A stretch of DNA of 64,000 nucleotides from Eledone cirrhosa. Its lineage: Eukaryota. Under the pieces are notes generated by a model that did not search any database, was not told where the DNA came from, and was given only the letters and a program-made list of their open reading frames with translations. Made by a program: the position numbers and the translations under genes. Position 1 is the stretch's first letter. Each line of letters opens with the position of its first letter. Positions 16,521 through 62,478 of the stretch are shown here, in pieces. The stretch is from positions 173,228,001 to 173,292,000 of the forward strand of contig OZ024740.1 of assembly GCA_964016885.1 (NCBI GenBank), read 5' to 3'.

Positions 16521-18220
16521 ACCCACATTTCAGTAAATTTACTGGGGTGCAGTGCCTCTCTCTCCACTCTGATTCTCCTTCTAAAGTGGTACCTAAAGAA
16601 GGGAATGAGTTGTTGTCCGGAGAGAAAGGCATCTGCCCTCAGTCCTCTCAATCTCGTCCACCATATAACCTCTATCACCATAGCCACTATACAGAGGAAA
16701 ACTGCCTCTTTTGTTTTTGAAAGAAGTTGGCGGTTTGATCCTTACTATGGACTTGGCAGTCAACTAGATTTGTCCCATATGCGACAGCAGTTGTTCTGCG
16801 TAGTTCTATAGGATGGTTACGCCCGGGCAGTGTACAATTGCGTGCAAGACGGTTTCAATGTCCTGCTCGCATCTTGGACACGTCCTCTTGGAAGGATCCC
16901 TGCCGGGGCGTCCGTGCCTGTAGATCTTGTCTCGAACTGGTAGAGCTCCTCGGTAGCACTGCCAGGCCAGGGACCTCTGGAAGTTGTCCATAGGTCCCGG
17001 GCGGAAAGTCCTACCAAACGGACTGGTGAGTTCGTCGTCTTCGACATCTAAAGTCTCTCCGGGCACTTCTTCGCCCTTGTGACGTATTAACCCTCTATAG
17101 AATGTCGAAGTGGAGTCTCCACTGATTGCTGTGCCCGCTTGACAGAGGACTGTGAGCGCCTGAGCGCATTCAATGTGCCAGGCGCCCATCTTCTTCGGTC
17201 TCCGCTTGACCCAAGACTGTAGCTCCGTCAGCGAGACAAGTTGCGGGAAATGCCTGTCTCACAAACGGTGCCCACACCGGTTGGGGGTCGGTGAGGAATA
17301 CCTGTAGATGCCGTAGCCTCAGCGCATGTTTGCGCATCATCAGCCACGGCATTCCCAGCCCTCCGTTGGAAGGGTGCTAACAGCAGACGGATCTCCTCAC
17401 CAGTGGAGCCTGCTTCTTCCAAAGGAACTGGAAGAGTATGCGTTCCATCTTGGTGAGGTGTTCATGGGGCCAAGGCACGACAGTCAAGCGGTAGTAGATG
17501 ATGGACGCTATGAAAGTGTTCGCCACCTCCGCTCGACCTTTCAAGGATAGTTTGCACTCTGCCCACTTCTGGGTGAGCGTAAATACCTTGGCCGTGACCT
17601 CGTTCCAGTTTTTCTCCACCTGGAGGTCTGGACCGAACCAGACCCTGAACAATTTCACCGGTCCGTCCATCCAGCGTCCGACAACGCTGTCAGACGGCAT
17701 CGGTTTGCCTGTTCACGTTCCGAGTTGCAAACCGACAGACTTGTCCGGGTTTAGTTTTGCTCCTGTGAGCCTTTCGTATTCCTGCAGTAAGTTGCCGATC
17801 ACACCGATTTCCGAGGTTTCCGACACCATTACCGTCACGTCGTCGGCATAAGCCGACCCCGCTTTCCGCAGTCCCGGTTCCAACGGGATGCCCTGCAGCT
17901 GCTCCAACTTCCGCAGTAGTGGCTCTAGAGTCAGTACGTACAGAATGGAGGAGAGAGGGCATCCCTGTCGGATGGAACGCGATATTGCGAACGGCTCCGA
18001 TAGGTAGCCGTTCACCTTAACCACCGAGCAGATGTTGGTGCGTATTGCGGCGATCCAACCTCTGAAGACGAGTCCGAAACCGGCCGCCTTGAGAACCGCT
18101 TCCAAGTATCGATGGTCGACCCTATCGAACGCCTTAGACTGATCTAAATTGATCAGAACCCCACCGAGGCCGGGTTTACACCCCACCCTATCTATGATGT
18201 ATCGCATGAGGTGGAGGTTG
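16521..18220 (-). mobile_element. Tx1-type LINE fragment (RT C-half to C-terminus), frameshifted
   Basis: LDQSKAFDRVDH, IRQGCPLS, AYADD, CPRC..ETVLHAIVHC. Confidence 0.9.
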
Positions 18221-18469
18221 AGATAAATAGATAACTTTTTTTTTTATTTTTTTTTTTAGATAAATAGATAGATAGATAGATAGATAGATATATTTCTTTA
18301 TTTACCATAAAGGCATAAAAAGAAGGGACAAATACAAAGGGGGAGTTTACATAAAATCGAGTAAAAAGGGTATAAAATGAAAATAATCGAAAACAACCTC
18401 AAAAGGGAGGGGACGTGATGGGGGTTGCACACACCCCCGAAAAAGTGTGCAATCGTTTGCCCGGGGAGC

Positions 18470-21400: not shown

Positions 21401-21944
21401 AATCTAGTCGATATCTATCGACCAAGTTAAAACGATCGAGTAACCCCTTGAGGCTGTTACACCCCCCTCTATTAGGACATGCTCCTGCATAGTCCCAACG
21501 TGCATCTAGGATGTCATTCCAATCCCCCGCTAGAAGCAGGGAACGCGACGTTCCCAGAAAAGTCTCCAAACGCTGGAAGAAGTCGGGCCGTTCAGCTCCG
21601 AAAGGGGAGTAGACGGCGACCAGTCTCAAGGCCGCACCTTCACTACTGCCAACGTCTAGCACCAACAAACGACCCTCCGGGTCCGAGTGAACAACCTGTA
21701 CGGCGAGACCCAGGTGTTTTTCCAGCAGTACGACAACCCCACCCCCACCTCCATGTTGACAGAATGATGCATGCACCTCAAAGTCATCGAAGGCAGGGGC
21801 CAGCTGCCGCACGACGCTGATCCGAGTCTCACAGATAACCATTACATTTATACCACGTGACCTGAGGTCATTTAGAAGCTTTGCTTGCTTCCAAGTTGAG
21901 CCCAGGCCACGTGCATTCCAACATCCTACTCTTAACACATCCAT
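18470..21944 (-). pseudogene. Tx1 ORF2: AP endonuclease, reverse transcriptase, Zn finger (frameshifted)
   Basis: WNARGL, ICET, AGDWN, SYLDRF, TDHK (APE); RT motifs in ORF 19222-21291; HALVQC. Confidence 0.92.
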
Positions 21945-21977
21945 GTGGGCGGCAAAGCCAAAGGAGAGTGTAGAGAC

Positions 21978-23930
21978 CTACCTTTCTGTTTCCCGGGGTT
22001 CGGGTCGCACGACTTCCATGGTGTCGGGGGTGTTGGGTGAAGGGGTGTCTTGTGGTGGTGTGGGGTCGTCAGTGTGTGGTGGGGTTGGGGTGTTTGGAGT
22101 TGTGTTGGGGAGGGGAAGGGGAGGGGGAAAGCTTTTTAGTAGGACGCGGTTTATGGGTTTGACAGAGGGTGGTCCTACGTCCTCCTTAAAATCCTTTTTT
22201 AGTTTTTGGCAGAGGTTCATTGGGATCTTTATTAATTTTAAATGTGGGTAGTTTTCTGAAGAAACAAAGTTTACACCTTCGGTTTGTACCGAAGGATTAT
22301 TGTTTATGAGTTTATTTAATTTATTATTGTTTCTGTTGATGTAAGTATAGTGTAATGTCTTTTTTTCGGATGGTGTGAGTGTTTCGAAGAGGGGAGGGCA
22401 GGTTTGGTTTTGTTTGTTGCTGGAGGGGTGTTTTGTGTTTTGTTGGATTGTGTTGACATTTGGGTAGGGGTTGTTTGGCCTTGTGTGTTTTGCACATGTT
22501 TTCTTTTTTTCCTTTTAATCTGTCTGAAGGACTCCGTTTCTTCCTCCGAATTCGTTGGGTTATCTTCAGTGTTGGAGGGAAGAGGTATGTTTGCTGGTAA
22601 TGTTTCCGTGTTGGTTTTCTTTGTGGGGAAGATGGATGTCACTATGTTAGACTGTGTTGTGTGTTGTGGCTGCGGTGGTTGTGTTGTTTTATTGAGTGAG
22701 GGGTTGGGTGGGACTGTATTTTGTTTTTGGGTAATGTGTTGTGACTGTTTGTGTTGTGGTGGTGGTGTAGTTTTACTGAGGGACGGGTTGGGTGGGACTG
22801 AGTTTTGTTGTTTGTTTATCTGTTGTGGTGGTGGTGGAGCTGGTGCTGGTAGCAGGGTTTTCTTTTTGTTGAGTTGGGGACAAGCCGCCTTCAGGTGCCC
22901 TCTGCCTGCACAGATATGACAGGACGGCCTTCTCCCCTCCACGCTAATGTTTATATACCCGTGGCCCTCTAATAGGATTCTGTCGGGTATTTGGGCGATG
23001 CGTTCAGGCTTCATTTGCACTACAAGTTCTATACCTGTTCCACTGAACGCATTGCCTGTGGTTTTCCCAATGGAAATCACGTTGTCATTCGCTGGATCGA
23101 TGAAGCCAGCTATGAGCCAGCAGTAGTCCACATCTGGCATCATTGCATCCAGCCATATGCGCTGAGTTCTTTTACCCATATAAGATGGATAAAAGGTAAA
23201 ATTTGTCGAACGAATCGGTGACAAAGCACATTTTTTTGCCGCCGATTCGTTCTTCATAATAATCGCTAGGCTTCCATACAGTCTGTCTCTTCTTATGAAA
23301 GTGGTTTCATTAAGCACTTCTGTAAGTACTGCTTTGATTTCTGTTTATGTTGGCTGTTGAGGTTTGTTTGAAATGTTGTTGATGGTGCGGAAAACGACCG
23401 TCCGACTTTCAATGTCTTTGGTGAGTTTTTGAGGCATTTTTACCGATAAAATACCATTTTCTCCTTCAGTTATGTATTGTTTGGCGTCTGTAATTCTTTG
23501 TGCCACATCTGAAATATTTTCAGGTATATATGTCAAAGATTTCTTTGTTGTTTGTGCAAATGAAATATTATTGGTGTTGACTTTGTCGTCTGCTTTGCTT
23601 TCTGTTATGATGTTGTTTTCAAATGTTATTTTTGTGTTTGTCGTGTCTTTGTTTGTGGTATTAATAGTGTCATGCAATTTTTCAAATTTCTTTTTTTTCG
23701 TTGTTGAAATCAATGTCCAGATTTGGTTTTTCGTCATTTTTCTCCGCAGATTCGTCTGTTTTTATTTTATTTTTTCCTTCCTTCTCTATGACGTTAGTTG
23801 GGAAGGAGGGGGGGGGGACTAAAGCGTGCGAGCTTACAACTCTTACCGTTGTCCCCCCACCACTATTTTCGTTAGCTTCGTTTAACATTTCTGTCAGACG
23901 ATTGAAATTTTTTATGCCACAAAATTTTTA
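21978..23930 (-). pseudogene. Tx1 ORF1 (gag-like, CCHC knuckle, Pro/Thr/Gln-rich linker), disrupted
   Basis: CHICAGRGHLKAAC; FYPSYMGKRT aligns with MYPSHMGKRT of the 58 kb element; position upstream of ORF2. Confidence 0.85.
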
Positions 23931-26714: not shown

Positions 26715-29525
26715 AATATGTAGTTTAGAAAGCCACAACAATGCAGATGGGAAATCTCGAGGTAAGAAGTGAGTGAGAAATAGGAGAAAAGTGAAAATGA
26801 AAATGAAAACAAAACAAAGGTACAAGGGTTACCGTAGTGGAGATTTAATCCCAATATTTCGGGCTCACGCCCATCAACGGGGGAAAGTTCCAAAAGGGGG
26901 GGGGGGAACAGGCTAAACCGGAGAAAGTTGTATTGTCGTTAAAACTTAGGAATGCCGTTATGGGGAAAATTCAAACGAGGGAAAGAATGCGCGTGCGCGT
27001 GATAGGCTGTGGCAAAAGCTACTGACCAATTGGGTTAAATCAATAGGGTGCGCTAGCGTGTGAAAGCCGTAAAATATGTGTGTAAATATATATGTGTGTG
27101 TAACTGTGTGTGTATATGTGTATGTGTGTATGTATGTGAGTGTGTGTGTGTGAAAGATAGTGGGCCGTAGAATCTGGAAAACAAAGAGTGTGAAGGGTGG
27201 TAGGTTGTATAAACATGTGTGCGTGTATAAATATAGATGTGTGTGTGTATGTGTATGGGTATACATATAAGTGCGTGTGTGTGAAAGATAGTAGGCCGTA
27301 GGGGCTGTTACTGGTCACTATGGTTAAATTAGCCATGTCAGCTCATTTCTCTCAGCCCGGTTGTTAAGTGGGGGTCTGAGGTTCTTAATAACAAGTGCTT
27401 CCTTTATCCTTAAGGATCCGATACTGCGTTCAGTCGCTAGGACTGTGACCAAGGGTCTGCCCTGTGGGTTTCCGCATTTAAGGATGTGTTTACGGAAGGA
27501 AGATGCGTTGGTGTTGACATGTTCCTTGATACGAACATGTAGGGGTCGGATGGTGCTACCTATGTAGAACTTGTTACATTTATCGCATTGAATCTTATAT
27601 ACGACATAGGTGCGTAGGCAATCCGCCCCCCGTATCGGGCAGTTGCTGAGGGAACACGTCCCATCTGACTCGTCGGGTTTGTTGGAGAGGCATCTTCGGA
27701 GCGAAGGTCCTGTGTGGGCCAAATGTATGTCAAGTCCCTCCCTCCGTATGGCCCTACGGATGGCGTTCGAGGTATATTCACTCAGGTGGGGGATTTTAAA
27801 GAAGCACCTGCTTTTACCTAAGTTTCTAGTGGGTGTCTGTCTATTGGGTCTGGGGTCTCTAATTCCGTTAATCAGTCGCTTGGGATATCCATTAGACTTG
27901 AGTAGATTACGGAATTGCGTGGTATGGGTGAGACCACCCATCGGGTCGCTGCATCTATTAGTGATCCGTGTAAGTTCATTTAGGACATAGCCTCTCTTAG
28001 CGTTGTTGGGGAGGGCTGAGTTGTAATGCACAAATAAGTCCTTGCACGCTGCCTTGCGGTAGAAGGTGGTGTTTATGTCTCCTTCTTCCGAGATGTTGAT
28101 ACGGAAGTCGAGGAGGGCGAGTGACCCGTCTTCTCCAGGGTGTTCGATGGTGAAATCGACGTGATGGTCAGTGTCGTTGAAGATTTGGTGAATTTCATTC
28201 GCCATCTCCCGGGAAGAAGTGAGTATCAGTATGTCGTCGACGTATCTGGAGTAGAAGGCGACGGCGTTGGGTTGGCAGGTGTTGAGTGCCTTGCGTTCCA
28301 GGTGGTCCATGTACGAGATCGCAAGTATGCCGGACAGACTAGAGCCCAGAGAACTGTTTGTACGTGTGGCCGAGGAAATTGAAGAATGCATTATCCACAA
28401 CGAAGGAGAGGAGTTGGTGGATGTCCGTGTGTGTGAGTCCGAAGCAGTGTAAGTTAGATGCTCGGACTCGTTCGGTCAACAGGTCGACCGCTGGGGATGC
28501 TGGTACGGAGGTATAAAGGGCGACCACATCAAGACTGAAGGCATATCCGTTATCCTTTCTGGTGTTGGGCGCCAGATGGTGTAGTCGCTCCAAGACCTCC
28601 TTTGAGCTGCAGACGTGGGCTGGTAGTGTGTGTAGAATGGGTTTCAGTAGTGTGGAGAGCAGCCACGATATTTTGTAAAGTGGGCCCTCCACGCTAGAGA
28701 CAATGGGCCTGATTTTCAAATCGGGTCCTTGTTTATGTGTTTTCACCAGGTGGTAGAAGGTGGGTAGTTTGCTGTTTCGAGTCATTATGTTTCTTTTTTT
28801 TTGTTTTTTTTTTACCTTCTTTGGCAGTTTTCGTTGGACACAGATGTTAGTCCATATGGTGTTAATGCCTTCCTCGATTAGAGTCGAGGAGGTCCCTGTG
28901 ACTTTCAAGTAGAGGCTGTCGTCATTAAGATGTTGGAGAGCTAAGTTGTTGTAGGTCTCTCTCGAGATGACACAGAATTCTTTCCCCTTGTCGGAGGGAA
29001 GGTAAACAAGGTTCCTGGATCTTAGGTTGGTGAGAGTATTAAATTGTGCATTGGTGAGGTTGCGTTTATTGTGTGTGTGTGTGTGTGTTGGGAAAGGATG
29101 TTAGAGATAGAATGTTTCAACCTGAGTAGTTTAGTGTCAAGTTCGTGGTTGGTGGGTGGGGGTTGGAGTGGGTTGTCGAGGTGGTACGTGGGGAGTGTGG
29201 GGTGGGTTGTGGGGTTGTAATCGATCTCGGTGTTGTTTTGGATGGCGGTTAGCCATTTCAATTGATATGCTGTCCGACAGAAGTTGGTTTCGATGTCGAG
29301 TTTCAGTCTATCATCGAGACGCTGTGTAATGATGAACTTGGGTCCGAGGCGCAGGAGTTCGAGTTCGTCGTTGGTGAGGGTACTGGTTAGGTCGGTAACG
29401 AGGTGTGAAGCATCGTTGGTATGTAGATCGCTGTTGGGGGATGTAGCGGAGGGTGTTGTATCGCTGTTGCCCCTGGTGTGGTTGTAGTCGGTCCGTCTGT
29501 GGGAGCGGATGTTGTCATTGTAGTA
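26715..29525 (-). mobile_element. Penelope-like retroelement (RT and GIY-YIG endonuclease), frameshifted and 5'-truncated; 3' region has a degenerate HHR (~26850-26885) and ends at (TA)n
   Basis: KTHK..IRPIVS, FSLDVVALYTSVP, YSRYVDDILI, FYRK, VVYKIQCDKCNKFYIGST.RPLHVRIKEH. Confidence 0.9.
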
Positions 29526-30248
29526 TTTGTTTACAGTCCATTCGTATTTCCGTATAAGGCGCTGTTTATCGTATTTGACTCTCTATTACCCGTACCACAA
29601 ACATAACGAGTCCCTTAGATATATTAATGTTAATTCTAACCACCCCCAAAACATCACTGATAACTTAGTAAAAAGCGTCTCTATTAGAATCTCTGGCCTC
29701 TCTGCCAATGAAGATATTTTTAACGCCTCTGCCTCCTACTACGATGACGCCCTCGCCCGCAGCGGATTTAAAGAAAAGATAACCTACCTAGAAACCACTG
29801 CAAAACTGCAGAAGAGGAATAGGCATAGGCAGAATAGCTGGTACAACCCTCCCTTCAATAGAGAGGTCTCTACACCTATAGCTAGGACTTTCTTCACTTT
29901 GCTGAACATACACGTCCCCATACAACACAGGTACTACACCATCTTTAATAAGAACACAATAAGACTCTCCTATTCCACCACACCTAACCTTGCTAGGAAT
30001 ATAGCCAATCACATTTCTAAAAAATTAAATAAGCCAACCACCTCCGAACCCAATCCCCGGACTGGGGCCTTGTGTAATTGCCTAAATAAGGAAGCCTGCC
30101 CACTTGAAAACAAATACCTGACAAACGATATCGTATACAAATGCGATGTCATCTCAGGAAAAAGACTTACATCGGCATGACTTCCAATAACTTTAAGACC
30201 CGTTGGTATGCCCATACCAACTCCTTCAGAAGACCGGACAAATCAAAC
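29526..30248 (+). mobile_element. Penelope-like fragment of a different lineage (RT thumb, linker, start of GIY-YIG)
   Basis: YINVNSNHP, WYNPPF, IRLSYSTTPN, CNC..CPL..IVYKC in ORF 29527-30180. Confidence 0.8.
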
Positions 30249-31049
30249 TATATATATATATATATATAAATTCATAGGGATATATATGTATACATTTAGA
30301 CGGACTAAGGAGAAGAAAAATTTGATATATTTTATCTGACTGTTCTTCAAACTTACAATTTTATATATATATATAGAGAGAGAGAGACGGACCCCTAGTG
30401 AAACATAAGTAATATATAATTAAATATGTATATAAAGCAATATTGATTCTTTGTTCCCTTATATATTAATACTATGTATATATATATTTAAATATATATT
30501 GTTATACTTTGGGAAGGTCATGCTGCTAATAAAAACACACTCACCCGTTGGTTTTCACTTCAATCTATATACTACTAAAACTCTGTGATTGTGTGCTTGA
30601 CTATTATTTAATACAGCTAAAACGGCGCATAATGGGAAAATAGCCTGAAATGGGAATACAAATGGAATAAAATAAGTTTCGCGTAATTCGGAGCACGGGT
30701 CCCGAGATACGGGTTTTTTCCTGGTATCTTCATAAATAGAGAGAGAGAGAGAAAGATAGAGAGAAAGAGATAGTGGTTGTGAGAGAGTAGATTGAAAGAG
30801 AGAGAGAGAGAGAGAGGGGGGACACATAGACAGAAGGAAAATGGAAGAGAGCGAGAGAGAGCTGATGGTGTTGTTGAAGGAAATTGTTGAAACTGAATAT
30901 TAAGTCATATGTGTCATATAACGTTTGTTAGGACCTGTGTATACGAGTCACAGACACCTACACATATAAACACACATATACACATATTTTAATTATTTAA
31001 AAATTATTTTTAAGTGAACATGATTTTAAAAATTTATTTTAAAGTTAAC

Positions 31050-31880: not shown

Positions 31881-31885
<5 letters not shown>

Positions 31886-32032
31886 GTAGAACACTGGAAG
31901 GTAATATCCGTAGTGGTAGAGTACTCAGTCCATGGGATGAGTTAGGTAGAAGTGGTTACACAACAGTTAGTTCACCATACCAAGAACAATTATTCTCGGT
32001 ATGGTGAACTAACTGTTGTGTAACCACTTCTA
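31881..32032 (-). repeat. Family B element, palindromic form (palindrome 31947-32032)
   Basis: 43 bp arms centred on aacaattatt; tail shared with 37165-37260 and 62413-62478. Confidence 0.88.
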
Positions 32033-32123: not shown

Positions 32124-32126
<3 letters not shown>

Positions 32127-32509
32127 TATAAAGTATGTCCATAGATCATTTGATAATATATATACACCATTTCCTCTCCCAATTAGCATAATCAACCACA
32201 CAAAAAAACAATTAAACCAGGCTATAAGATTAAAAGGCACCTATGAAGAAATAATAGATACATAGACGACAGCCATCTATTCGCTATCAACAGCTATAGA
32301 ATATTTACCCAACATTTCAATAGCACGTGGAAATCGATTAAATATACCGTCAACCATACACAATTAGGTATAAAATTAAAGTTAGAAGTAAAAATGTATA
32401 TAAACATACCAGGATTACGTTTCTACCCTTTAGGGTTTCGTTCGCTTTCGGAAATATCCTATCAAGGATAAATTCTCGAGCTTCGAACTCATCAGGAAAC
32501 AAACTCACT
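32124..32509 (-). mobile_element. Family C retrozyme-like element, partial copy beginning just upstream of its HHR
   Basis: Reverse complement closely matches 61887-62272. Confidence 0.85.
32419..32500 (-). ncRNA. Type I hammerhead ribozyme (family C)
   Basis: Minus strand: gtttc CTGATGA gttcg...cgaac GAAA ccctaaaggg TA gaaac. Confidence 0.88.
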
Positions 32510-34404: not shown

Positions 34405-35115
34405 TGGAAGAGGAATTGGTATATATTTTATCTAATAATTCTAAGGACATGATTTATGATATATTGCTCTGATTATTTAATTTATTAATTCTTCATAGAG
34501 CTTAAAAGTGACCGGTTTCAACATATATATCTATAACTTTATGTATATGTAAACCTTTATATTTAATAATCTCCCGTTAGGTTGAGATTCTATTTGGCGA
34601 TATTTGGCTGCGCTTTCTAGCAACAAGCCTACCCGCCGTAAGCAACCAATCACATTCTTTCTAGCTTGACCTCAGCCACATAGCGATTCTTAGCCATTTT
34701 TTAATCTAATTTTGGCGCGATCAGGTTGGAGAACTAGATGTCTGATTTTGAGTTTGTCTCCTGATGAATCCTAACTCAAGACATTCCTATTAATTGGATG
34801 TCTAAAAATACGGATGAAACCATGGTAGAGATATAATTACGGTATGTACACATTTCTTCTAAGTTTAATTTTACACCTAATTGTGTATGGTTGATGATAT
34901 ATTTAGTCAGTTTCTACATGCTGTCGAAATGTTGGATAAATACTCTATTGGGGCCACCGCGAAGAGGCCACTTTCGGTTATTTGTCGGAGATTTCTTCAT
35001 AAGAGCCTTTCTTCTTATAGCTTGGTCTAATTGATTTTTTATATGGTTAATTATGCTAATTGGAAGAGGAATTGGTATATATTTTATCTAATAATTCTAA
35101 GGACATGATTTATGA
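34405..35115 (+). mobile_element. Family C retrozyme-like element (656 bp unit plus ~55 bp terminal redundancy)
   Basis: tggaagaggaattggtatatattttatctaataattctaaggacatgatttatga at 34405 and 35061; TA tracts on both sides. Confidence 0.85.
34757..34831 (+). ncRNA. Type I hammerhead ribozyme (family C)
   Basis: tctc CTGATGA atcc...ggat GAAA ccatgg TA gaga. Confidence 0.88.
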
Positions 35116-37124: not shown

Positions 37125-37165
37125 CCGAGCTGAAGATCCGCTAAAGGTGAAACAATTGTTCTCGG
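37125..37165 (+). ncRNA. Minimal type I hammerhead at the head of an intact family B element (37109-37262)
   Basis: ccgag CTGAAGA tccgctaaaggt GAAA caattg TT ctcgg. Confidence 0.8.
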
Positions 37166-37813
37166 TATGGTGAACTAACTGTTGTGTTACTACTTCTACC
37201 AAACTCGTCCCATGGACTGAGTGCTCTACCACTACGGATATTACCTTCCAGTGTTCTACCTTTATATATATATGCAGTGCCGGATTTACCATTCTGCTTA
37301 GTTGTGCTTAAGCATAGAACCCCGTTAACTAGGGAGGTGGGGGGCATCTTCTTGCCAAAAAAATGTTTTACCTCTTTCAGGGCCCAAGTATCATAAATCT
37401 AGCACTATATATATCCCAAACAAGATAAGTAGAGTATATATATATTGTACCATCTGGACATTCCATACTATTCGGAGTTTCGCGTTGTGCACTTTGCGTT
37501 GTTTGGTGAAATATGCAGGACGTTGAATTTCTTGTCATGACACAGGAAGTACCAGCTGTGCATGATAAATATTTAAGCAAATAAATAGAGAAATAAATAT
37601 GTGTGTGTGCGCGTACATATGTATATATGTATGTATATATATATATATATGTATGCATGTATATATATGGATGCGTGTGGGAGCGCACGCCTGTCTTTAT
37701 GTTTTTCTCATACACCTAGACAACCATATTATCACACATATACGCTGCACTCGCACGCTCACACCTCTTCTCAATCTGTCTATCGTATTTACCTACCTAT
37801 CTGTTTCTCTTCT

Positions 37814-45222: not shown

Positions 45223-47072
45223 CACCGTGTAACATATTTTTGTTCCCCGGTTCTAAGTGTCATTTCATGGTTTGTTATATCCCATTATTATAAAAAAAAA
45301 CACTATTATTTAATCAGAAGTTTGGGTTTGTGGTCAGCAGTTTGATATTTCGAAATTTTCATATTTTTCAAGAAAAAACACATTTTTTTAAAATTTATCA
45401 GTTCATATAATTAAATCAACAGAGTATATATTTATTTTATTACACAAGCTCATCAAAAGCAAACAAGTAAAAACAAATAACACTTATAAAGCAACTTATA
45501 CACGTCAGAAATGACTGGATTTCCTGGATTTGCGGTTGTAGTCCAGGTCGCACTAGTCCCGCACTAGCCCCCAGATATAGTCCCCCATCATTTTTTCATA
45601 GTAGTGGCCCTGGTACCTCCGCTCTATCTCTTTCACATCTTGGTGGAATATTTCGCCTTGTTCTTCTGAGTAGGTGCCCATATTGTCCTTGAATTTTTCC
45701 AGGTGAGCGTCCAGCATATGGAGTTTAAGCGACATCCTGCATCCCATGGCGCCAAAAGCCTTTATCAGATCCTGCACCAGTTGCTGGTAGTTTTCAGCTC
45801 TGTAGTTGCCCAGGAAGCCCTTAACAACTGCCTTGAAACAGTTCCATGCTGTTCTCTCAATCCTATTGAGCTTATTGGAGAACTCGGTAGACTCAATCAC
45901 CTTCTTTATCTGAGGTCCAACAAAAATTCCACCTTTGATTTTGGCCTCAGGTAACTTAGGGAAGAACTCAAGAAGGTACTTAAAAGCTGATGATTCTTGG
46001 TTGAGAGCCTTCACAAACTGCTTCATCAACCCCAACTTAATGTGCAGTGGCGGCATGAGCACAATCCTGGGATCAACTAGGTGGCTCCCACATGACGTTC
46101 TGGGTCCCAACTACAAATTCTGTTCGCTGCTCCCAGTTCTTTCTTTTGTAGTGGTCAGAGGTGGCTCTGCTGTCCCAAAGGTAGAGGAAGCATTGGAATT
46201 TGATAAAGCCTCCTTAGAGTCCAAGCAGGAAAGCCACCATCTTGAAGTCTCCAATGATTTCCCAATTGTACTGGTTGTATTGCAGAGCTTCCAAGAGGAT
46301 GTTCACACTGTAGGAATCTTCCTTCAGGCAGACTGAATGAGCTAAGGGCAGTGTCGGGAACTTGTTTCCATTGTGGGGGAGGAAAGCTTTCAAACTTGTG
46401 GTGGAGCTGTCTATAAATAGCCGCCACTCCTTGGGCACAAACGGCACCCCAATAACGTCAAACAGTCCAGGCACGTCATGGCAGAAGCAGAGGCCATCCC
46501 TAAGAGTATAAAAGCCTGAGAAAGGTTCGTGTCGAATTCTCTGACTTGTCACCTGCACTTCCTCCTTGACCAAGTTCCATTGCTTCATCCTGGAGACGAA
46601 TGCTTAAAACACAACTTACGCTTTATTCAGGGTGCGAATAAGTATCAATAAATCTCTTTAATCCACTTTTTAACAATTTTATACTTTATTGCACTTTTAT
46701 AATTTTCTTTAGGTATTACTCTTTATTTTATAATTTTTATTTAACCCGAAACATATATAAAAACATCATTTAACATAAGCAAATGAAACTTACATACAAT
46801 GTAAAATCCAGCATACAAATAATTGTTTCTACTTTAGGCACAAGGCCAGCAATTACCCAGTGCATTACTGGTACTTTATTTTATCGACCCCGTAAGGATG
46901 AAAGGCAAAGTCAACCTCGGACAAATAATTCTAGTGAATAGCTTAGAATTTTTACAAACCCAAACTTTTAACTGTTTAATAGCACTTTTTTTTTATTTAT
47001 TTGGGACCTAAGCAACACAAAAAAGTGATTACAAGCCAGGAACAGAGAAAATTTTTTTTTTGTTACACGGTG
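45223..47072 (-). mobile_element. Chapaev-like (CMC) DNA transposon, internally deleted; transposase remnant ~45510-46600
   Basis: TIRs caccgtgtaaca / tgttacacggtg; WRLFIDSS, GDFKMV, PPLHIKLGLMKQFVKAL, MSLKLH..H, SEEQGE.FHQD; family assignment is from memory of Chapaev3 proteins and CAC..GTG ends. Confidence 0.75.
46825..46920 (-). mobile_element. Truncated SINE nested in the DNA transposon, 10 bp TSD
   Basis: acaaataatt at 46815 and 46921. Confidence 0.9.
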
Positions 47073-49705: not shown

Positions 49706-50772
49706 TGGAATTTCGTATTTCTAAAGAAATACGGTATGTTTATAGATAAACATTTAGAAAGCCGTAGCTATGCAAATACACCGGAGGCTATAGTCCCTGG
49801 TGGTGTCTAGCAGAAGCAAGGGGGACAATCGTCGGTGCATTTCGAACTTAACTGGATCTCATCAGGACGATCCCTCCCGAAATGAATGAATATGAGGATG
49901 CATTAACATGAAGTCGTATTAGTTTCTCGCTTAACAGAAGAGTGAGTTACACAGTCAACGTAACGGGCATTTGCCCTTCATCAGGAAAAACATCGTTCAG
50001 AGTGTAGAAAAGGAAAAAAGGCAAGGCAAATAAAAAATAATTTTTAAAAATATATAATTAGAAAGAAAATAAAAAGAAGAGGGGTGTTGTGGAGTAGTGG
50101 TGGGTGAGGTAGTGGTGGGTGAGATAGTGATCCAGTGTGTGGGTTTGTGGGTCGTGGTGAGGGGTACAGACATGTAGTTGGTGGTTGTGTGTGGTGAGTG
50201 CGGGAGTTGATAGATAATGTGCCGGGTGTGGGAGTGAGAAGTGGTGTAACAGAGTGGGAGCTGGCAGGGCGAGCGCAGTTACGGAGGTGTGTTAGTGTAT
50301 CCATATGCTGGTATGTGTGAGTGGTTGTGCTGGTGGAAGATTTCGTGTGTAGTAAGGGTGGTTCGTGTGTATGGGTGTGTGAGTGGAAGGGTGGTGAATG
50401 TGGGGAAGGCGTTGGCTAGGGGGAATGTGGTGGTGCGTTTAGACCAGCGAGGTAAAGAATTGGAGAGAAAAAATAAAGTGCTGTTCCCTCTTGAGGCGTG
50501 AGTCCGATGGTCCGGCACAGGTGACAAGGTGGAATATTGTGAAGTTGTTTGTGCAGTGTCTGGCGGAGCAGAAATGTCGCGAGACAGGTTGCCCAGTCGG
50601 ATGTCAAGGAGGTGCTCGGCAAATCTGTCCCCCAAACGTCGGCCGGTTTGGCCAATATAAACGGCCTCGCATAGTGTGCAGTGGATCCCGTAAACGAGAC
50701 TCATGGATGTCCAGTGGAAGGAGTCCCTAACGTGGAAAGTTCGGCTGCTAGGTCCAGTGAGAGTGGTGGTGA
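49706..50772 (-). mobile_element. Penelope-like 3' fragment: GIY-YIG domain and 3' region with two HHR-like motifs (49829-49870, ~49955-49988); ends at (TATG)n
   Basis: LVYGIHCTLCEAVYIGQTGRRLGDRFAEH; tcgtc CTGATGA ga..tc GAAA tgca CC gacga; CTGATGAagggcaaatgccc. Confidence 0.82.
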
Positions 50773-51290
50773 GAGCTGTGATTGTCTGGTTTTGTGGCAA
50801 GCTTTCAAAGTGTGTTACACGCGTCATATCCCGCCAAACACTTAACAAGATCTTGTTTCGGATAAGGTTTGGCTTGTTATCCTGATTGAACCCACAGCTG
50901 TCGGCGTTTAACATTCTTCTAGAGTATCCACTTCTCATCACTGGTTATTAGACAGTTCAAAAATGGAAACTTATACTCTCAAAAATGAAGAGCAGTGCAG
51001 ATGTTAACGCGTTCTCTTCGATTATTTTCAGTTAGTTCATGTGGAATCTACTTGCCAAGCTTTGACGCCATTCCAAGTTCCTGTAAATTGGAACGAACGG
51101 TTGATGATGCTGAATTAACCTCAGCTAATTCTTTAACCATTGCATGGGGATTTTTTTCACTAACGGCTTTCGACGTATCATTATAAAAAAAAACAGGGCG
51201 CCAAAATCAAAGTTGCTATTGGTGTTTAACCCGTTTATCAGCTATGATCGAATGCATTCCAATAGAGACTATCATGTTTTTTCAGAGCAT
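50773..51290 (-). pseudogene. Mariner transposase fragment
   Basis: Manual translation gives VKELAE..SSTVRSNLQELG..SKLGK*IPHELT (WVPHEL), LITSDEKWI, and KILLSVWRD..HFESLPQNQTITA. Confidence 0.82.
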
Positions 51291-52809: not shown

Positions 52810-53224
52810 GTGTATGGTTAACCTGAGAAGGTTAATCAGAGCTTCAAACGCGGCCACCAGACAAACAAAAGCTTCCTGTCCTTCCCCTCTGAAGGCAGAT
52901 GGCGGGTAATCTTCACAATGGACTCAGTTGATAGTCGGATCCGTCCTACACGTGACAGCAGGTGCTCAACATAAACCCACAGGTCAGTGTTTATCTCGAG
53001 CTGGCAAAGCTCCTCGGTACCACTGCCAGGCCAGGGATTTCTGGAAGTTGTCCATGGGCCCTGGACCGAAAGTCCTCTGGAAAAGAGTGTCTAGTTGATT
53101 TTCGTCAACGCCCAGATTCTCCTCAAGGATGTCATCGCCCTTACCCTCCGCTAACCCTTTATAGAACGCTAAGGTGACGTTTCCACCGATCGTACTGCCT
53201 GATTGGTTGAGGGTTGTGAGAGCT

Positions 53225-53226
<2 letters not shown>
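52810..53226 (-). mobile_element. Tx1-type ORF2 C-terminal fragment
   Basis: FYKGL..DDILEE.LGV..RTFGPGPMDNFQKSLAWQ. Confidence 0.85.
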
Positions 53227-53264
<38 letters not shown>

Positions 53265-53523
53265 TTTCATTTATTGGCCACAAGGGCCGACATATAGGGG
53301 ACAATACAAAAGACTGGGACAGTGGGGTTTTACAGAAAAATCGAGTAAACAATATGAATAAACAAAGTAGCAAGAAAGTAACAAGAAAATTACAACAAGA
53401 AAACATTCCCCAATAGGGGGGATGGCCACCTAGGGTTCGCTCAGGTACCCCACCAGTCCTGAACGATCTGACGCTTCGAGAGAACCCTGTAAGGGCACCC
53501 CTCTCCTCTTCAAATTTACCTAC

Positions 53524-56500
53524 CTACAGCCGCATGACCAGAGTAGGCCCACTCACACGGGCCATTCTCGCCACATTCACCCACCTTTTAGAAAATGTAC
53601 TGAGGGGAAGCACTTCTCTCTCCACCCTCACCTTCCTTTCCAAGTGAAACTTGAAAAAGTTGATGAGGGATTGGCTGAAGAGAAAAGTGTCTGTCTTCAG
53701 TCCTTTCAACCTGGTCCACCATACAACCTCTTTCGTTACTGCCACCAGACAGAGGAAAATTGCCTGCCCTTCCTGGCCAAAGGAAGGCGGCGGGTCGATC
53801 TTCATTATGGACTCGGCCGATAGCCGGATCCGTTCTACACGCGACAACAGCTGTTCAACATAACTCCACAAGTCAGTAATGCACGGACACTGGACGAGTG
53901 CGTGCAGAACGGTTTCGTCGCTCTGCGCGCATCTCGGGCAGGTCCGTCTGACAGCACTTCCGTGCCTGTAGAGTTTATCTCGAACCGGCAGTGCCCCCCG
54001 GTAGCACTGCCAAGCGAGGGATTTTTGGAAATTATCCATCGTCCCCGGCTCGAAAGTCCTCCGGTATAGACTGGTTAGTTCGACTTCGTTGACTCCCAGA
54101 GCCTCTCCGAGTGCGTCGTCGCACTTGCCCACCACTAATCCTCTATAGAACTCGAGAGTGGAAGTTCCACTGACCGCATTGCCCGCCTGGTAGAGGGCAG
54201 TGAGTGCCTGGCAACATTCCAGATGCCAGTCACCCAATCTCGGTCTCTTCTTGACCCAGGACTACAACTCAGTCAAAGAAACGAGCTGCGGAAAGGCCCG
54301 TCTGACAAACGGCGACCACACCTGTTCACCGTTTAGGCATAATATCTGGAGATGCCGCAGCCTCAGCGCGTGCCTGCGCATCATTAGCCACGGCTATCCC
54401 AGCCCTCCACGTAGAGGGTGCTGGCAGCAGATGGATCGCCTCACCAGCGGAACCTGACCCCTCCACAAGAATTTGAAGAGAAGCCGCTCCAAGATGGCGA
54501 GGCGCGAACGGGGGCAAGGGACGACAGTCAGACGGTAGTAGATGACGGACGCGATGTACGCGTTCGCCACCTCCGCCCGACCTTTCAGTGATAGCTTCAT
54601 CCCAGCCCATTTCTGGGTGAGACTGACTACTCTGCCCGTCACCTCGTCCCAATTCTTATCCACCTGGAGGTCTGGCCCGAACCAAACCCCTAGCAACTTT
54701 ACCGGTCCGTCCGTCCAGCGCCTAACGACGCTGTTGGACGGCATGGACTTGCCTCTCCAGGTGCCGAGTTGCAAGCCCACTAACTTTTCCGGGTTAAGTT
54801 TTGCTCCCGTCAACCTTTCATATTCCTCCAATAAGTTGCCGACCACCTGATTTCTGAGGTGTCCGACATCAACAGGGTGATGTCGTCCGCATAAGCCGAC
54901 ACAGCCTTTCCGCGTCCCGGTTCGAGCGGGATGCCCTGCAATAGCTCCAGCTTCCGCAGTAAAGGCTCGAGAGTCAATACGTACAGAAGGGAGGAGAGAG
55001 GGCACCCTTGACGGACCGATCGGGAGACCTGAAACGGTTCCGAGAGGTGGCCATTAATTTTGACCATCGAGCAGGTGCCGCTGTTAATTGCAGCGATCCA
55101 GCTTCTGAAGACGGGGTCGAAGCCAGCCGCCTTGAGGACAGCCTCCAGGTACCGATGGTCGACCCTATCGAATGTTTTCGATTGATCTAAATTGATCAGA
55201 GCCCCACCGAAGCCAGGTTTACACCCTACCCTCTCTATGATGTATCGCATTAGGTGGAGGTTGTCGTGTATGGACCTGGTTTGGATTGCGCAAGTTTTCG
55301 CCTCCCCAACCAAATCCCTGACGACAAGCGCCAACTTCTTCGCTAACACCCTGGCCAAAATCTTAAACTCTGTGTTGAGCAGAGTTATGGGCCTGAAACT
55401 GTCGTATGTGTCCCTCTTGTTCTCGTCTTTCCTTATCAGCGTCACTACGCCCCGGCTCACAGAACTGGGAATACTCCCGTTTTGCTGCCAGTTGCAGTAG
55501 AGCGCTTCGAGGAGATTGGAGAACAAGTCTGGCATATTTACGTAAAGCTCGTAGGGCAGATCATCCAAACCGGGTGACTTGCGCCTCATGCAGCCTACAA
55601 GGGCATCCTGAATCTCGGCTGAAGTAATTGGCCTTTCGCAGCGCCCAACGTCAGCCGTCGAGAATTGCGGCAAACCATAGAGGTAGGGAGTGAAGTCCGC
55701 CACCATCTCTGACCCGCCACTTCCCCCGAACAACCGAGCAAAATGTTGGCGAAAGGCCTCACACATCCTCTTGGAATCGCTCAGCTCGAGCCCGTCTCGG
55801 TCCGTCAAAGACCGAATCATGGTTTTATTACCACGCTGCGCCTCTGCCACGCGGGCCCATCGAACAGCTTTGGTTCCCTCGTTTCTCAGAGCACGCGCCT
55901 TAGCTCTGACAATGCAACCTTCGTGTTTCGCATTGAAGAAATGGTCTAATGCCATTCTCGCCGCTAGCACACCAGTTGCAATGCCACTACCAATAGCCTC
56001 GTCTAACTTATCTACCAACTCGCCCTCCTTTCTAGTTTTCTCTAATGCTACTTCTTTGCTAAACTCTATCGACATTACTCTAATCTCTCTTTTGAGAGCC
56101 CCCCACCATCGATTGTTGACGACTCCCCCTGTCAACTTTTTCTTAACTAAATTGTTGACCTGGTCCCTGTAAGCCTTACGTGCCGGAAATGACATGTTTA
56201 GCTTCCAGTAACCAGGTCCTAACCTACGCGTCTTATCTAGGTCGACCATACAGATCACAAACTTGTGATCTGAATAGGCGACCGTTTCAAAACGTGGACA
56301 GCTTACACTATTTCTGTCTATTTTCCTAATGAATATCCTGTCTATATACGATCTAGATGACCCTATGCGGTTAGCCCAGGTCCACTCTGGCGCATTAGGG
56401 AAATCTAGTCGGTACCTGTCAGACAGTTGGAACTGGCTGATCAGGTTCTTGAGGCTTTGCACCCCCCGCTCCTATCGGATACTCCCACACAGTCCCAGCG

Positions 56501-56944
56501 TGCGTCTAAGATGCCGTTCCAGTCCCCCGCTAACAGTAAAGGGCGAGACGTACCCAGAAAGGCTTCCAGGCGTCTAAAGAAGTCCGGCCGCCCTGCCCCA
56601 GTAGGAGCATAGACGGCCACCAGTCTAAAGGCACCACCTTCATTATTGTTCACGTCCAGGACCACCAACTTCCCGTCCGGGTCTCGGAAGATCGACCTTA
56701 CCTCGAGATCCAGGCCTTTCCTAAACAGCACTGCCACCCCGCCTCCCATTCCCGGCTGGCTAACAGATGCAAAGATCTGATAGTCGTCGAAAATGGGGGC
56801 TAGTGCGCGCGTATCGGAAATCCTGGTCTCGCTGACTGCAATTACATCCATTTCTATCGACCTGAGGTCGTTGAGCAGGTGACCCTGCTTCCAGGACGAT
56901 CCCAGGCCTCGAACATTTAAACATCCTACTCTTAATACGGCCAT
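53524..56944 (-). pseudogene. Tx1 ORF2: AP endonuclease, RT, Zn finger (frameshifted)
   Basis: LNVRGL, VSET, AGDWN, SYIDR, SDHK; VRQGCPLS, AYADD; CPRC..ETVLHALVQC. Confidence 0.92.
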
Positions 56945-56975
56945 GTTGGCAGGTTAAACAGAGAGAGAGGAAGGT

Positions 56976-58983
56976 TTACTTACCTTCCGGGCTCTTGTGA
57001 AGGTCGGGTTGTTCGACCTCCATAGTTAGTGGGGTTTCTTTTGGGAACCCCTTTAAAAGTCTTGAAGTGGGTTTTACGTTCGGGGTTCTCACGTCCCGAG
57101 GAAAGCTGTCTCGTATTTCTTTGAATATGTCGAGCGACATTCGCACCAGAACCAAATCTTCCGGCACGCGAAATGTGCTCGATTTAAACATTTCCCCCTC
57201 TTTTTGTATATTTTCACTTCGTGCTACGAGAGCCATCAGTTCCTTGTTGGCCCTCCTGACGAGCATGAAGTTTTATCTGTTTTGTTGGTGCGATTTTATT
57301 TGTTTGCGTGGCTGTGGTGGTGATGGTTTTGGTGGTGTTGTTTCGGTTGTATCTGTGTTTGTTGTGAGTGCGATGTTTGTGGTTTCAGATGTTTGTGTGT
57401 ATATTTGTTCTTGCGTCTGTTTCGGTTGTTTGCGTTTGGGAGATTCTGGTGATGGTGATGGTGGTGTTGATGTTGGTGTTATTGGAGCGATGTTTGCGTG
57501 GGTGGTGTCTGCGTTTTTTATTGTGGGTGCTTTTGTGCTTTGTTGAGTTTTTTTTTTCTTTTTGTGTTTCCTTTTTTGTATTTTGGGGGATTTGGGATTT
57601 CCCTCATCTTCACTACTGGTAGATGAGGGGTCTGTGTCTGTAAGTGTGTTTGTATGTATGTTTAAAGTTTTATTGGTGTGTGTATTTTGGGGGGGAAGGG
57701 GAATTTGACAGCTTTCCTCGTTTCCCCCCTGGGTGGTCAATGTTGGTGGTGTTTTTTCTATTGGTGTTGTTGGTGGTTTTGCCGGTGCGGGTGTTGGTTG
57801 TGGTCCTCGCCCCGGCGTCGGCAGCAGTGGAGCCTTTCGACCCCTTGCCTCTTTCAAGTTGAGGGCAGAAGGTTCGCAAATGGGTTTTTTCCCCACAAAC
57901 AAAACACTGCGGCCTTTTGCCTTCGGTCATAATGTGAATGACAGTCCCATTCTGAAGGCGGATATGGTCTGGGATTGTCTTCACATTCTCGGGCCTGATC
58001 TGGAGAAGGATCTCCAGGTCAACCCCGGACCAGTCCTCTCTGGCCGTTCTGGTCTCTTCTATAGGGACTGTATCCGTCCCCTCCACAATCACACATCCCA
58101 GAAGCCACCACATGTCAAGTCCTGGTGGGATTCTGGGAATGCAGAGACGGGCCGTTCTTTTTCCCATGTGGGAGGGGTACATTATGACCTTGCTGGTTTT
58201 GCAAGGAGTCATGGCGTGTTTCATCGCGAGGGCTTCTGACTTGAACAACACCGAAATGGTGCCGTACTGTCTGCCCCTCTTTATGTACTGGGTGTCTTCT
58301 CTGATGCACCTCAGTGCGACTTCGATATCTTCTTGTGGGATTAACGCTGCCCTTTTGGTTTGTGCTGAGATGCATCTATAATGCACCGTTTTGCGCTCCA
58401 CTGCCTCAATAGCTTCTACCGGGACAGTTAAGTTGGCTCAGGTTTGCTCTTGCTTGATGAGCTTCCATGCCTGGGCCAACTTTTCATCTTTGTTTGAGAG
58501 GTCCATGTTGAAGCATGGCCTCTTTTTTGCTGCTGCCGCAGCGAAAGTGATCTTGTTTTCGTTGGGGGTGTTGTTGACGTTGTTCTTGTTGGTTTTGTTG
58601 TTAGCACTGTCGCTTTTATCATTGTTGTCTTTGTTGCCACCGTTGTTCTCGGTGCAGTTGGTATTGTTGCTGTTGGTGTTGTCGCTATTTGTTTTCATGT
58701 TAGTGGTGTTGATATTGTTGTTGTATTTGTTATTTTTTTTTTTGTTATCTGTATTTTCGTTGTCGCTGTTCCTGTCATTTTTTTCAAAATTAGAGTTCTT
58801 ATTGGTATCATTGGTGTCTTTGTTTACCTTGTTTGTGGTGGTGTTTGTGTTATCAATGTGTGTTAATTTCGCTGTAGCGCTCCTCTCAACTTCTACGTCG
58901 TTGTCGCACGACAGCCGACATATCGCTGGGGGGAGGAGGGCGTTGCTCAGCCGTGTTTTTTTCTTCGTAAATTTTTTTAACAT
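56976..58983 (-). pseudogene. Tx1 ORF1 (Asn-rich N-terminus, CCHC knuckle), frameshifted
   Basis: CFVCGEKTHLRTFC; homology to the ORF1 at 22-24 kb. Confidence 0.85.
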
Positions 58984-59209
58984 GTAAAAAAAATTTCAAA
59001 TATTTGGGCCAAAAGGCCCAAATATTATACTTTCCCCTTCACGGGGCAAAGTCTAAGGGCTTATATCCCTTACACAACAAGAAATATTTAACAAATAATT
59101 TAAACAGGCAAATAAAGCGACTTACTGTGAGCGAGCAAAATACGTCCGCTTAGACCAATAATAATAATAATAATAATATCGCCTTCATTTATTGGCCACA
59201 ATAATAATG

Positions 59210-60528: not shown

Positions 60529-61216
60529 TATATATATTTATATATATATTTAATATAGAAATGGCTTCTACAGGACTAGAACTATTTCGGGAGAAATCAT
60601 CATGTATTGAGTGCCTTGCTTGCTGTGGTTGCCCCCGATAGAACCCGGGATAAACTTATATATATAGAAGTGGTTACACAACAGTTAGTTCACCATATTC
60701 CCAATTAGCATAATCAACCACATGTTGGGTAAATATTCTATAGCGGTTGATCGCGATTAGATGGCTGTCGTTTATTTATCCACTATTTCTTCATAGGTGC
60801 CTTTTAATCTTATTGCCTGGTTTAATTGGTTTTTTATGTGGTTGATTATGCTAATTGGGAGAGGAAATGGTGTATATATATTATCAAATGATTCTATGGA
60901 CATACTTTATAGTATATTGCTCTGATTATTTAACTTATTAATTCATCATTGAACCACATCGTGAATGATTACCAAAACATATATCTGTGACTCTGTCTAG
61001 TTTGTGTATATGTAAATCTTTATATTTGATAATCTCCCATAAGGTTGAGATGCAATTTTGGCAACATTGGGCTGCGCTTTCTAGCAACCAGCCTACTCGC
61101 CGTAGACACCAATCACATTCTTTCTGACTTGACCACTGCCATGTCACGGTTCTTAGCCATTTTGAATTCGTTTCTGGCGGGGATCATTTAGGAAAATTCT
61201 TTGTCCAAGTGAGTTT

Positions 61217-61297
61217 GTTTCCTGACGAATTCGAAGCTCGAGAATTTATCCTTGATAGGATATTTCCGAAAGCGAATGAAACCCTAAGGGTAGAAAC
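61217..61297 (+). ncRNA. Type I hammerhead ribozyme (family C)
   Basis: gtttc CTGACGA attcg...cgaat GAAA ccctaaggg TA gaaac. Confidence 0.9.
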
Positions 61298-61895
61298 CTA
61301 ATTCTGGTATGTGTATATGCATTTTTTCTTCTAACTTTAATTTTATACCTAATTGTGTATGGTTGACGGTATATTTAATCGATTTCCACGTGCTATTGAA
61401 ATGTTGGGTAAATATTCTATAGCGGTTGACCGCGAATAGATGGCTGTCGTTTATTTATCCACTATTTCTTCATAGGTGCCTTTTAATCTTATAGCCTGGT
61501 TTAATTGGTTTTTTATGTGGTTGATTATGCTAATTGGGAGAGGAAATGGTGTATATATATTATCAAATGATTCTATGGACATACTTTATAGTATATTGCT
61601 CTGATTATTTAACTTATTAATTCATCATTGAACCACATCGTGAATGATTGCCAAAACATATATCTGTGACTTTGTCAAGTTTGTGTATATGTAAATCTTT
61701 ATATTTGATAATCTCCCATAAGGTTGAGATGCAATTTTGGCAACATTGGGCTGCGCTTTCTAGCAACCAGCCTACTCGCCGTAGGCACCAATCACATTCT
61801 TTCTGACTTGACCACTGCCATGTCACGGTTCTTAGCCATTTTGAATTCGTTTCTGGCGGGGATCATTTAGGAAAATTCTTTGTCCAAGTGAGTTT

Positions 61896-61976
61896 GTTTC
61901 CTGACGAATTCGAAGCTCGAGAATTTATCCTTGATAGGATATTTCCGAAAGCGAATGAAACCCTAAGGGTAGAAAC
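61896..61976 (+). ncRNA. Type I hammerhead ribozyme (family C)
   Basis: Same motif as 61217, 679 bp downstream. Confidence 0.9.
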
Positions 61977-62269
61977 CTAATTCTGGTATGTGTATATGCA
62001 TTTTTTCTTCTAACTTTAATTTTATACCTAATTGTGTATGGTTGACGGTATATTTAATCGATTTCCACGTGCTATTGAAATGTTGGGTAAATATTCTATA
62101 GCGGTTGACCGCGAATAGATGGCTGTCGATTATTTATCCACTATTTCTTCATAGGTGCCTTTTAATCTTATAGCCTGGTTTAATTGTTTTTTTGTGTGGT
62201 TGATTATGCTATTTGGGAGAGGAAATGGTGTATATATATTATCAAATGATTCTATGGACATACTTTATA

Positions 62270-62308
<39 letters not shown>

Positions 62309-62327
62309 ATCTGTAAATATATATATA

Positions 62328-62474
62328 TAGAAGTGGTTACACAACAGTTAGTTCACCATACCGAGAATAATTGTTCTTTGTATGGTGAACTAACTGTTGT
62401 GTAACCACTTCTACCTAACTCTTCCCATGGACTGAGTACTCTACCACTACGTATATTACCTTCCAGTGTTCTAC

Positions 62475-62478
<4 letters not shown>
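62328..62478 (+). repeat. Family B element, palindromic form (palindrome 62328-62413)
   Basis: 43 bp arms centred on aataattgtt, plus tail. Confidence 0.88.

Follow-up and report, generated by a model that had tools for sequence, protein, structure and literature searches.

The window analysed here, a 64-kb stretch of the 3.0-Gb Eledone cirrhosa assembly (contig OZ024740.1, 173228001-173292000), contains four copies of a repeat that carries a type I hammerhead ribozyme (HHR). All four loci proposed in the initial annotation were recovered, and its estimates of about 1.06, 0.57, 1.08 and 2.3 units agree with the measured lengths. Locus 1 (264-978, plus strand) is a subfamily B copy of 1.06 units, with a terminal repeat of period 674 and an HHR core at 602. 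Locus 2 (32124-32509, minus strand) is a 386-bp subfamily A piece of 0.57 unit, with its HHR at 32495-32424, and locus 3 (34405-35115, plus strand) is a subfamily C copy of 1.08 units and period 656, with its HHR at 34761-34827. Locus 4 (60722-62272, plus strand) belongs to subfamily A and comprises 2.28 units of period 679, namely a partial unit (60722-60914) followed by two full ones (60915-61593 and 61594-62272). Phase is given below as position minus 60914, counted along the unit 60915-61593. The units are 76% identical between A and B and between A and C, and 71% between B and C. Because locus 4 is the longest among 89 end-anchored copies and one of only three with two HHR cores, it was regarded as a candidate source copy. 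The window density is well above average, as judged from four copies in 64 kb versus one (short) copy in a 400-kb spaced sample.

Loci 2 and 4 have about 300 bp of downstream flank in common, comprising 148 bp at 98% identity and then a matching order of microsatellites, which reduces the independent 3′ junctions of the window from four to three. By their sequence, the two loci are related through duplication or conversion. The last repeat of locus 4 (62187-62272) agrees with locus 2 at phases 594 and 601, and not with its own upstream repeats (61508-61593), suggesting that conversion or recombination has taken place between them. An inverted piece of the unit (60699-60723, minus strand, phase 601-625) sits at the 5′ junction of locus 4. 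Next to it lies a 47-bp piece (60651-60697, plus strand), which belongs to an adjoining hairpin element and has a second copy at 62314-62360 (96%); this repeat around locus 4 is possibly a long target duplication. An element of about 150 bp, with 32-bp inverted arms and a 66-nt extension between TA tracts, was found at 62328-62477, 31883-32030 and 37151-37260, and resembles the fixed head-to-head terminus of a further family of the Penelope-like element (PLE) type. Other transposon remnants, labelled from reading their ORFs, occupy 14500-23800, 52850-59000, 12358-14129 and 45553-46603; they include several AP-endonuclease/RT LINE copies that are 70-76% alike, an RTE-like RT fragment and a DNA-transposon-like remnant.

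The hammerhead ribozyme and its unit

Five type I HHR cores were identified in the window (602, 32495 on the minus strand, 34761, 61222 and 61901), and stems I-III pair in each of them, so that every unit has the intact core and paired stems expected of a retrozyme. The first HHR of locus 4 (61217-61297, plus strand) consists of stem I (gtttc/gaaac), the core CUGACGA (61222-61228), a 49-nt stem II, GAAA (61278-61281) and stem III (ccc/ggg), with predicted cleavage after 61292 (phase 378). The second (61896-61976, plus strand) is identical in sequence, with predicted cleavage after 61971, and the predicted monomer between the two cut sites (61293-61971) is 679 nt long. In locus 1, cleavage is predicted after 670 (GUC). 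The stems listed in the initial annotation were all confirmed except at locus 2, where stem III reads ccctaaaggg. The proposed Rfam search detected no HHR in the window at either the gathering or the E<=10 threshold, probably because stem II is 48-49 nt long. When scored with a model trained on 41 family HHRs, including the window's own copies, the five window HHRs reached 80-106 bits, and the rest of the window gave no more than 15 bits.

The covariation of the stems, first noted within the window, holds genome-wide. It was evaluated in an alignment of 41 distinct HHR regions, after 11 of 52 rows had been dropped (nine truncated or rearranged, two near-duplicates). In this alignment, 90.8% of cells were paired and two-sided changes occurred in 13 of 23 pairs, mostly in stems I and II. 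There were 66 two-sided cells, compared to 22.7 in shuffled alignments and 3-26 in slid controls, and none of 500 shuffles matched the covariation score. Since related sequences can beat shuffles without any structure, the covariation supports, rather than proves, selection for cleavage. The core positions were 95% conserved, with N7 free and position 17 being A, C or U, never G. Both core motifs were retained in 105 of 165 distinct HHR regions, some of which are truncated copies. Other HHR-bearing repeat families, with a stem II of 26-35 nt, were also observed in the window (10875, 34261, 40629, 43628 and 49984 on the minus strand, 25628 on the plus strand) and in sampled loci (L094-L128). 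In spaced samples totalling 400 kb, a strict motif scan picked up 11 HHR motifs; at that density, the genome would hold tens of thousands.

The monomer is predicted to be a stable, self-paired RNA, as is characteristic of retrozymes. The predicted fold of the 679-nt monomer had a z-score of -5.8 against 20 shuffles, and circular folds were 15-23 kcal/mol below shuffles (about 2-3 sd). A rod-like hairpin of about 260 nt (61307-61564, plus strand, phase ~393-650) was predicted for each of the subfamilies A, B and C. Within it, a 60-pair core is maintained mainly through one-sided G-U changes, and 8 of the pairs show two-sided change. No strong conserved fold spanned the start sites of reverse transcription described below (alifold -3.2 kcal/mol).

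A search with the unit returned 5,223 candidates on many contigs, 40 of which were scored. A 19-mer common to the window subfamilies had 1,309 exact matches genome-wide; corrected for the 39% of copies that reach the 19-mer and for its exact conservation in 30 of 56, this gives a rough family size of about 6,000 arms. At least four subfamilies (A-D) were distinguished, 67-76% alike and with 34-37% GC, and one member (L336) is more diverged than these. The 19-mer, together with CCAAT, lies in a block conserved across subfamilies (61070-61113, plus strand), about 110-150 nt upstream of the HHR, which is possibly an internal promoter. In agreement with the initial annotation, the unit is non-coding: the longest stop-to-stop frames in doubled units were 65-81 codons and no PLE protein match was obtained. 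There was no tRNA in the 64-kb window, and the unit has neither an LTR nor a tRNA head, as in non-LTR retrozymes. The unit abuts itself head to tail without interruption, with 175 exact junction matches. In contrast to the tandem nature initially assumed, the family is mainly dispersed and 5′-truncated. Only a minority of copies are tandems that contain two or more complete HHRs (locus 4, L028 and L271 among them; 3 of 89 end-anchored copies), and the sampled arrays reach about 3 units at most.

The initial annotation had considered the unit long for an animal retrozyme. It does exceed the 150-450 bp given by Cervera and de la Pena (2020, PMC7229834) but falls within the 51-972 bp of the consensus sequences in the accessible text of Li et al. 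(2026, bioRxiv 10.64898/2026.07.22.740005), where retrozymes are linked to PLE terminal repeats; by that range its length is not exceptional.

Two fixed 3′ ends and the pairing of arms

A new finding is that family copies terminate before (TA)n at either of two fixed 3′ positions, which are separated by 108 nt. The short end is the major one (62265-62275, plus strand, phase 679-3) and directly precedes (TA)n; its internal equivalent in locus 4 is at 61586-61596. The second end follows a 108-nt tail (60918-61025, plus strand, phase 4-111) and corresponds to 61025 (and 61704). The tailed end does not occur as an end in the window, yet exact patterns matched 395 short ends and 166 tailed ends genome-wide, compared to 175 sequences reading on and none in backward controls. 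Thus, copy ends are fixed rather than random across the genome. The single common 3′ end and fixed start that the initial annotation had read from four loci were confirmed genome-wide, but there are two such ends, not one, and the junctions of loci 2 and 4 are not independent observations.

In a full-unit search, 30 of 30 loci stopped at phase 3 or no more than about 12 nt from it, followed by TA in every case but one, which had TG. When 30 loci were retrieved with a 3′-end query, four extended to phase 111, every one of them with an inverted partner; of 29 distinct tailed loci, 22 were accompanied by an inverted arm that stops at the short site. Of the 90 arms anchored by the 19-mer (three pairs share a locus), 67 ended short, 15 carried the tail and 8 ended otherwise. 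Both 3′ ends were found in subfamilies A, B and C. Among 79 distinct head-to-head insertions, 54 combined a short and a tailed arm, one combined two short arms, none combined two tailed arms, and one end was rearranged in the remaining 24. Accordingly, the short-plus-tail combination accounted for 54 of the 55 insertions in which both ends could be classified, and for 22 of 34 in loci that had not been picked by their ends.

This anatomy was compared with that of PLEs. According to Craig et al. (2021, PMC8557442), the PLE tail is 30-40 bp long and often present at one end only; in the in vitro work of Frangieh et al. (2024, PMC11167929), it spans the interval between two internal RT start sites, which are themselves non-homologous to the target. 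As in the EN+ PLEs of these two papers, the present family shows 5′ truncation, partial tandems, inverted 5′ copies, (TA)n microsatellite targets, an optional 3′ tail on one arm of inverted insertions, and an HHR upstream of the internal start sites. Unlike EN+ PLEs as described there, it has no ORF, and its tail of 108 nt exceeds both the published 30-40 bp and those of PLEs resident in this genome (~43 nt in PLE1, ~45 nt in its relative PLE1b and ~68 nt in a Hydra-clade family). The same pairing was seen in these residents, with a short and a tailed arm in 5 of 5 inverted insertions of PLE1/PLE1b and in 8 of 9 pairings of the Hydra-clade family. The in vitro data available from PMC11167929 showed no strand difference in start site, whereas the genomic insertions here pair the short and tail starts almost always.

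The best internal TA match is a (TA)4T motif (61552-61560, plus strand, phase 638-646), where copies of 1.06 units and of 42 nt often have their 5′ junction and where 3′ ends are rare. Only 4 ends were found at this motif versus 478 copies reading through it, so priming by the best TA homology was rejected and the RT start appears to be positioned, not found by homology. Fold-back copying of a single cDNA was likewise rejected as a general route, since the arms of two insertions (L066 and L073) do not overlap and neither arm can therefore always be copied from the other. With an insertion anatomy that is that of PLEs, having two starts and one tailed arm, the family is very probably a PLE-mobilised HHR element.

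The template of reverse transcription

Both start sites fall within the predicted monomer, the first 301 nt and the second about 410 nt past the cut. The 89 short-ended copies (one duplicate dropped) had a median length of 430 bp, and 21 of them (24%) exceeded one unit, in line with the more-than-unit copies reported in the initial annotation. In a set of 310 distinct arms, 122 of the 139 arms at risk crossed the predicted cut site. An excess of 5′ ends was observed at phase 379-395 (17 versus 6.9 expected), next to a deficit at phase 362-378 (2 versus 6.4); in the subset independent of the 89 copies, the cut-site excess was weak (7 versus 4.1, P 0.12), and it could arise from RT stalling at the HHR or the rod. 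Ends were also overrepresented at phase 236-253 (13 versus 4.8; 6 versus 2.9 in the independent subset), which could mark a transcript start, with some templates being linear and uncut. A further excess, at phase 621-640, coincides with TA microhomology and the rod base. Given the crossing and this pattern, the cut site is at most a minor boundary, and the templates are either mostly continuous with some linear ends, or RT stalls at structure. In a single case (L065:720-1124, minus strand), an inverted arm has its 3′ end at phase 378, the predicted cut site, and lacks a TA tract; it could have been copied from the end of a cut RNA.

These data bear on two forms of template. A circle, as proposed for PLEs (PMC4209133) and for retrozymes (PMC7229834), is favoured here, although the same junction would arise from an uncut multimer or from template jumping between ends, and we consider it somewhat probable that circles are the main template. 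Alternatively, the same element could be copied by the same PLE enzyme from linear RNA, as uncut multimers or through end-to-end jumps, with the HHR acting as a regulator or a mere passenger. We regard this as rather unlikely, but it has several observations on its side. HHR cleavage was dispensable for an anole PLE in vitro, where uncut RNA was the main template (PMC11167929, as far as its accessible text goes); the 5′-end excesses at phases 236-253 and 379-395 fit linear ends; and the longest arm reaches about 3 units. Furthermore, both arms of 27 inverted insertions always came from the same subfamily, the partner being the closest relative in 15 but a distant variant (rank 30 or worse) in 4, which implies that more than one RNA molecule can take part. 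On the other hand, if templates were purely linear, the upstream promoter would be lost in each round, and sources would become ever shorter without renewal. Copies with two HHRs are scarce (3 of 89), although 24% exceed a unit; in addition, the HHR covaries and its stem III is stable. For such two-HHR sources, a circle would be the simplest route of renewal.

Resident Penelope-like elements and the proposed route

The window also contains PLE sequences. PLE1 (27324-29582, minus strand, 3′ UTR to ~26712) has RT and GIY-YIG matches just under the Pfam cut-offs and a frameshift in this copy; the family is young, with the best 150 of 16,040 candidates being 98-100% identical in the endonuclease. 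Its short end is preceded, at about 130 nt, by a minimal HHR-like motif in which the core is variant. The Hydra-clade fragment (29524-30250, plus strand) stems from an abundant family (46,305 candidates), assigned to this clade by its CxCX5C and RWY motifs, whose full copies (L465-L469) have a microsatellite-rich 3′ UTR of 2.4-2.7 kb ending in a long-stem-III HHR. At 50279-50944 (minus strand) lies an old GIY-YIG fragment of Neptune-like type, followed downstream by degenerate HHR motifs. The distance from cut site to short end is 301 nt in the HHR family compared to ~20-130 nt in three resident PLE families.

Alternatively, an autonomous PLE outside the sample could have the unit as its long terminal repeat or 3′ UTR, and the copies would then be its 5′-truncated remnants. 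Every insertion feature is indeed PLE-like, and the 2026 preprint, as available, reports PLE matches for 21 of 57 retrozyme families in Xenopus (24 match 22 elements, 21 of them PLEs). Yet no RT plus GIY-YIG ORF is colinear with the repeat, and the unit joins itself head to tail at the 175 exact junctions. PLE ORF matches were present in 71 of 300 unit loci (1.11 Mb, some overlapping), but a same-strand upstream PLE ORF without an intervening microsatellite occurred at one duplicated locus only, which joins in mid-endonuclease. The unit is therefore not always attached to a PLE ORF as its terminal repeat. The partner search covered 30 loci each of PLE1, Hydra-like, PLE1b (one being the unit locus L170) and Neptune-like elements with 1.5-kb flanks, and five longer Hydra-like loci. 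In 119 PLE endonuclease loci and the five longer ones, no unit homology was detected in the PLEs' own UTRs, and thus no similarity to the terminal repeats of these four groups. Naiads, which are listed for Octopus with a (TA)n preference (PMC8557442 supplement, in part), are a further PLE clade beyond these four. Taken together, this makes an autonomous parent improbable. Unit copies near 2 of 30 PLE1 and 4 of 29 PLE1b loci are explicable, on a rough estimate, by a shared preference for long TA tracts. TA-less junctions between the unit and PLE ORFs (L170 with PLE1b; L262, L350 and L056 with Hydra-like) were too few and mixed to name a partner. Tail blocks that by eye are shared with the Hydra-like tail failed a shuffle test (P 0.02-0.96, 20 comparisons), PLE1 scoring equally; a Hydra-clade family as the partner PLE is a weak lead.

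A satellite-like repeat with a vestigial HHR, spread by DNA-level duplication and recombination, would fit the flank common to loci 2 and 4 and the duplicated sampled loci (L056/L057, L159/L160), but it is highly improbable and already largely refuted by the end anatomy, the copies lying on many chromosomes in unrelated flanks, with fixed 3′ ends, scattered 5′ ends, strict short-plus-tail pairing, rare arrays and HHR stems that covary across subfamilies.

The family is a new non-LTR retrozyme family of an already known class. Like the metazoan retrozymes in the accessible parts of PMC7229834 and bioRxiv 10.64898/2026.07.22.740005, it is non-coding, with one canonical type I HHR per unit, GC below 50%, a predicted self-paired RNA, a length within 51-972 bp and PLEs in the same genome. 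It differs from them in being mostly dispersed and 5′-truncated, in its sampled arrays of at most about 3 units and in its stem II of 48-49 nt. It also matches none of the PLE terminal repeats sampled here, in contrast to many Xenopus families. Those parts of the two papers hold no end analysis comparable to the two fixed 3′ ends and head-to-head arms. With the non-autonomous Chlamys PLEs (MRC1; PMC8557442, in part), the family shares non-coding PLE passengers, pseudo-LTRs and head-to-tail copies; Chlamys passengers generally match their partner's 3′ end and most Chlamys lack a canonical HHR, in contrast to the canonical HHR without significant partner similarity described here. Neither the family nor the presence of tails in retrozymes is described in the literature that we searched on retrozymes in cephalopods, HHRs in octopus and retrozyme tails, in which subscription papers and repeat databases were little covered. 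The sample of the 2026 preprint, as given in its available text, comprises 35 species (vertebrates, three insects and one anthozoan), and one of nine predicted retrozyme dimers was cleaved there, while eight were not.

The covarying HHR, the fixed ends and the more-than-unit copies support the retrozyme-like reading with a PLE link that the initial annotation had offered. The reading that we hold to be probable is a dispersed, non-coding, non-autonomous HHR retrozyme, likely copied by a PLE enzyme from a predicted circular RNA of 660-680 nt. In this scheme, rare two-HHR copies such as locus 4 would be transcribed, and their HHRs are predicted, from structure and covariation, to excise the 679-nt monomer, which a host ligase may circularise as in described retrozymes. 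Judging from insertion anatomy, a PLE RT/GIY-YIG protein would then nick (TA)n, and reverse transcription would start inside the RNA at two protein-positioned sites, 301 and about 410 nt past the cut. Most insertions have the short end alone, presumably reflecting use of that site only. Where both target strands are extended, each site would supply one arm and a head-to-head copy with one tail would result. Synthesis would stop variably, usually after passing through the ligated cut site, and could pass its own start, thereby renewing two-HHR source copies.

In the retrozyme papers, as far as their accessible text goes, mobilisation by PLEs is backed by HHR type, co-occurrence and terminal-repeat similarity, and the mechanism is stated not to be worked out. 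We tentatively propose a more specific scheme, namely that a viroid-like 679-nt circle, unrelated in sequence to resident PLE ends, may carry its own pair of PLE start signals and undergo rolling-circle target-primed reverse transcription. The insertions might then record PLE enzymes moving retrozymes from circles, a dimeric enzyme giving each target strand one start. The family presents the mechanistic mark of PLEs, two internal starts with one per arm, in a non-coding HHR element, and the strict pairing of one short and one tailed arm is relevant to PLE integration generally. With a short, defined RNA, mapped starts and a predicted cut, a single in vitro assay could address both PLE trans-mobilisation and the choice between circular and linear templates, so that the two-start anatomy would turn a hypothesis on retrozyme mobilisation into a defined experiment.
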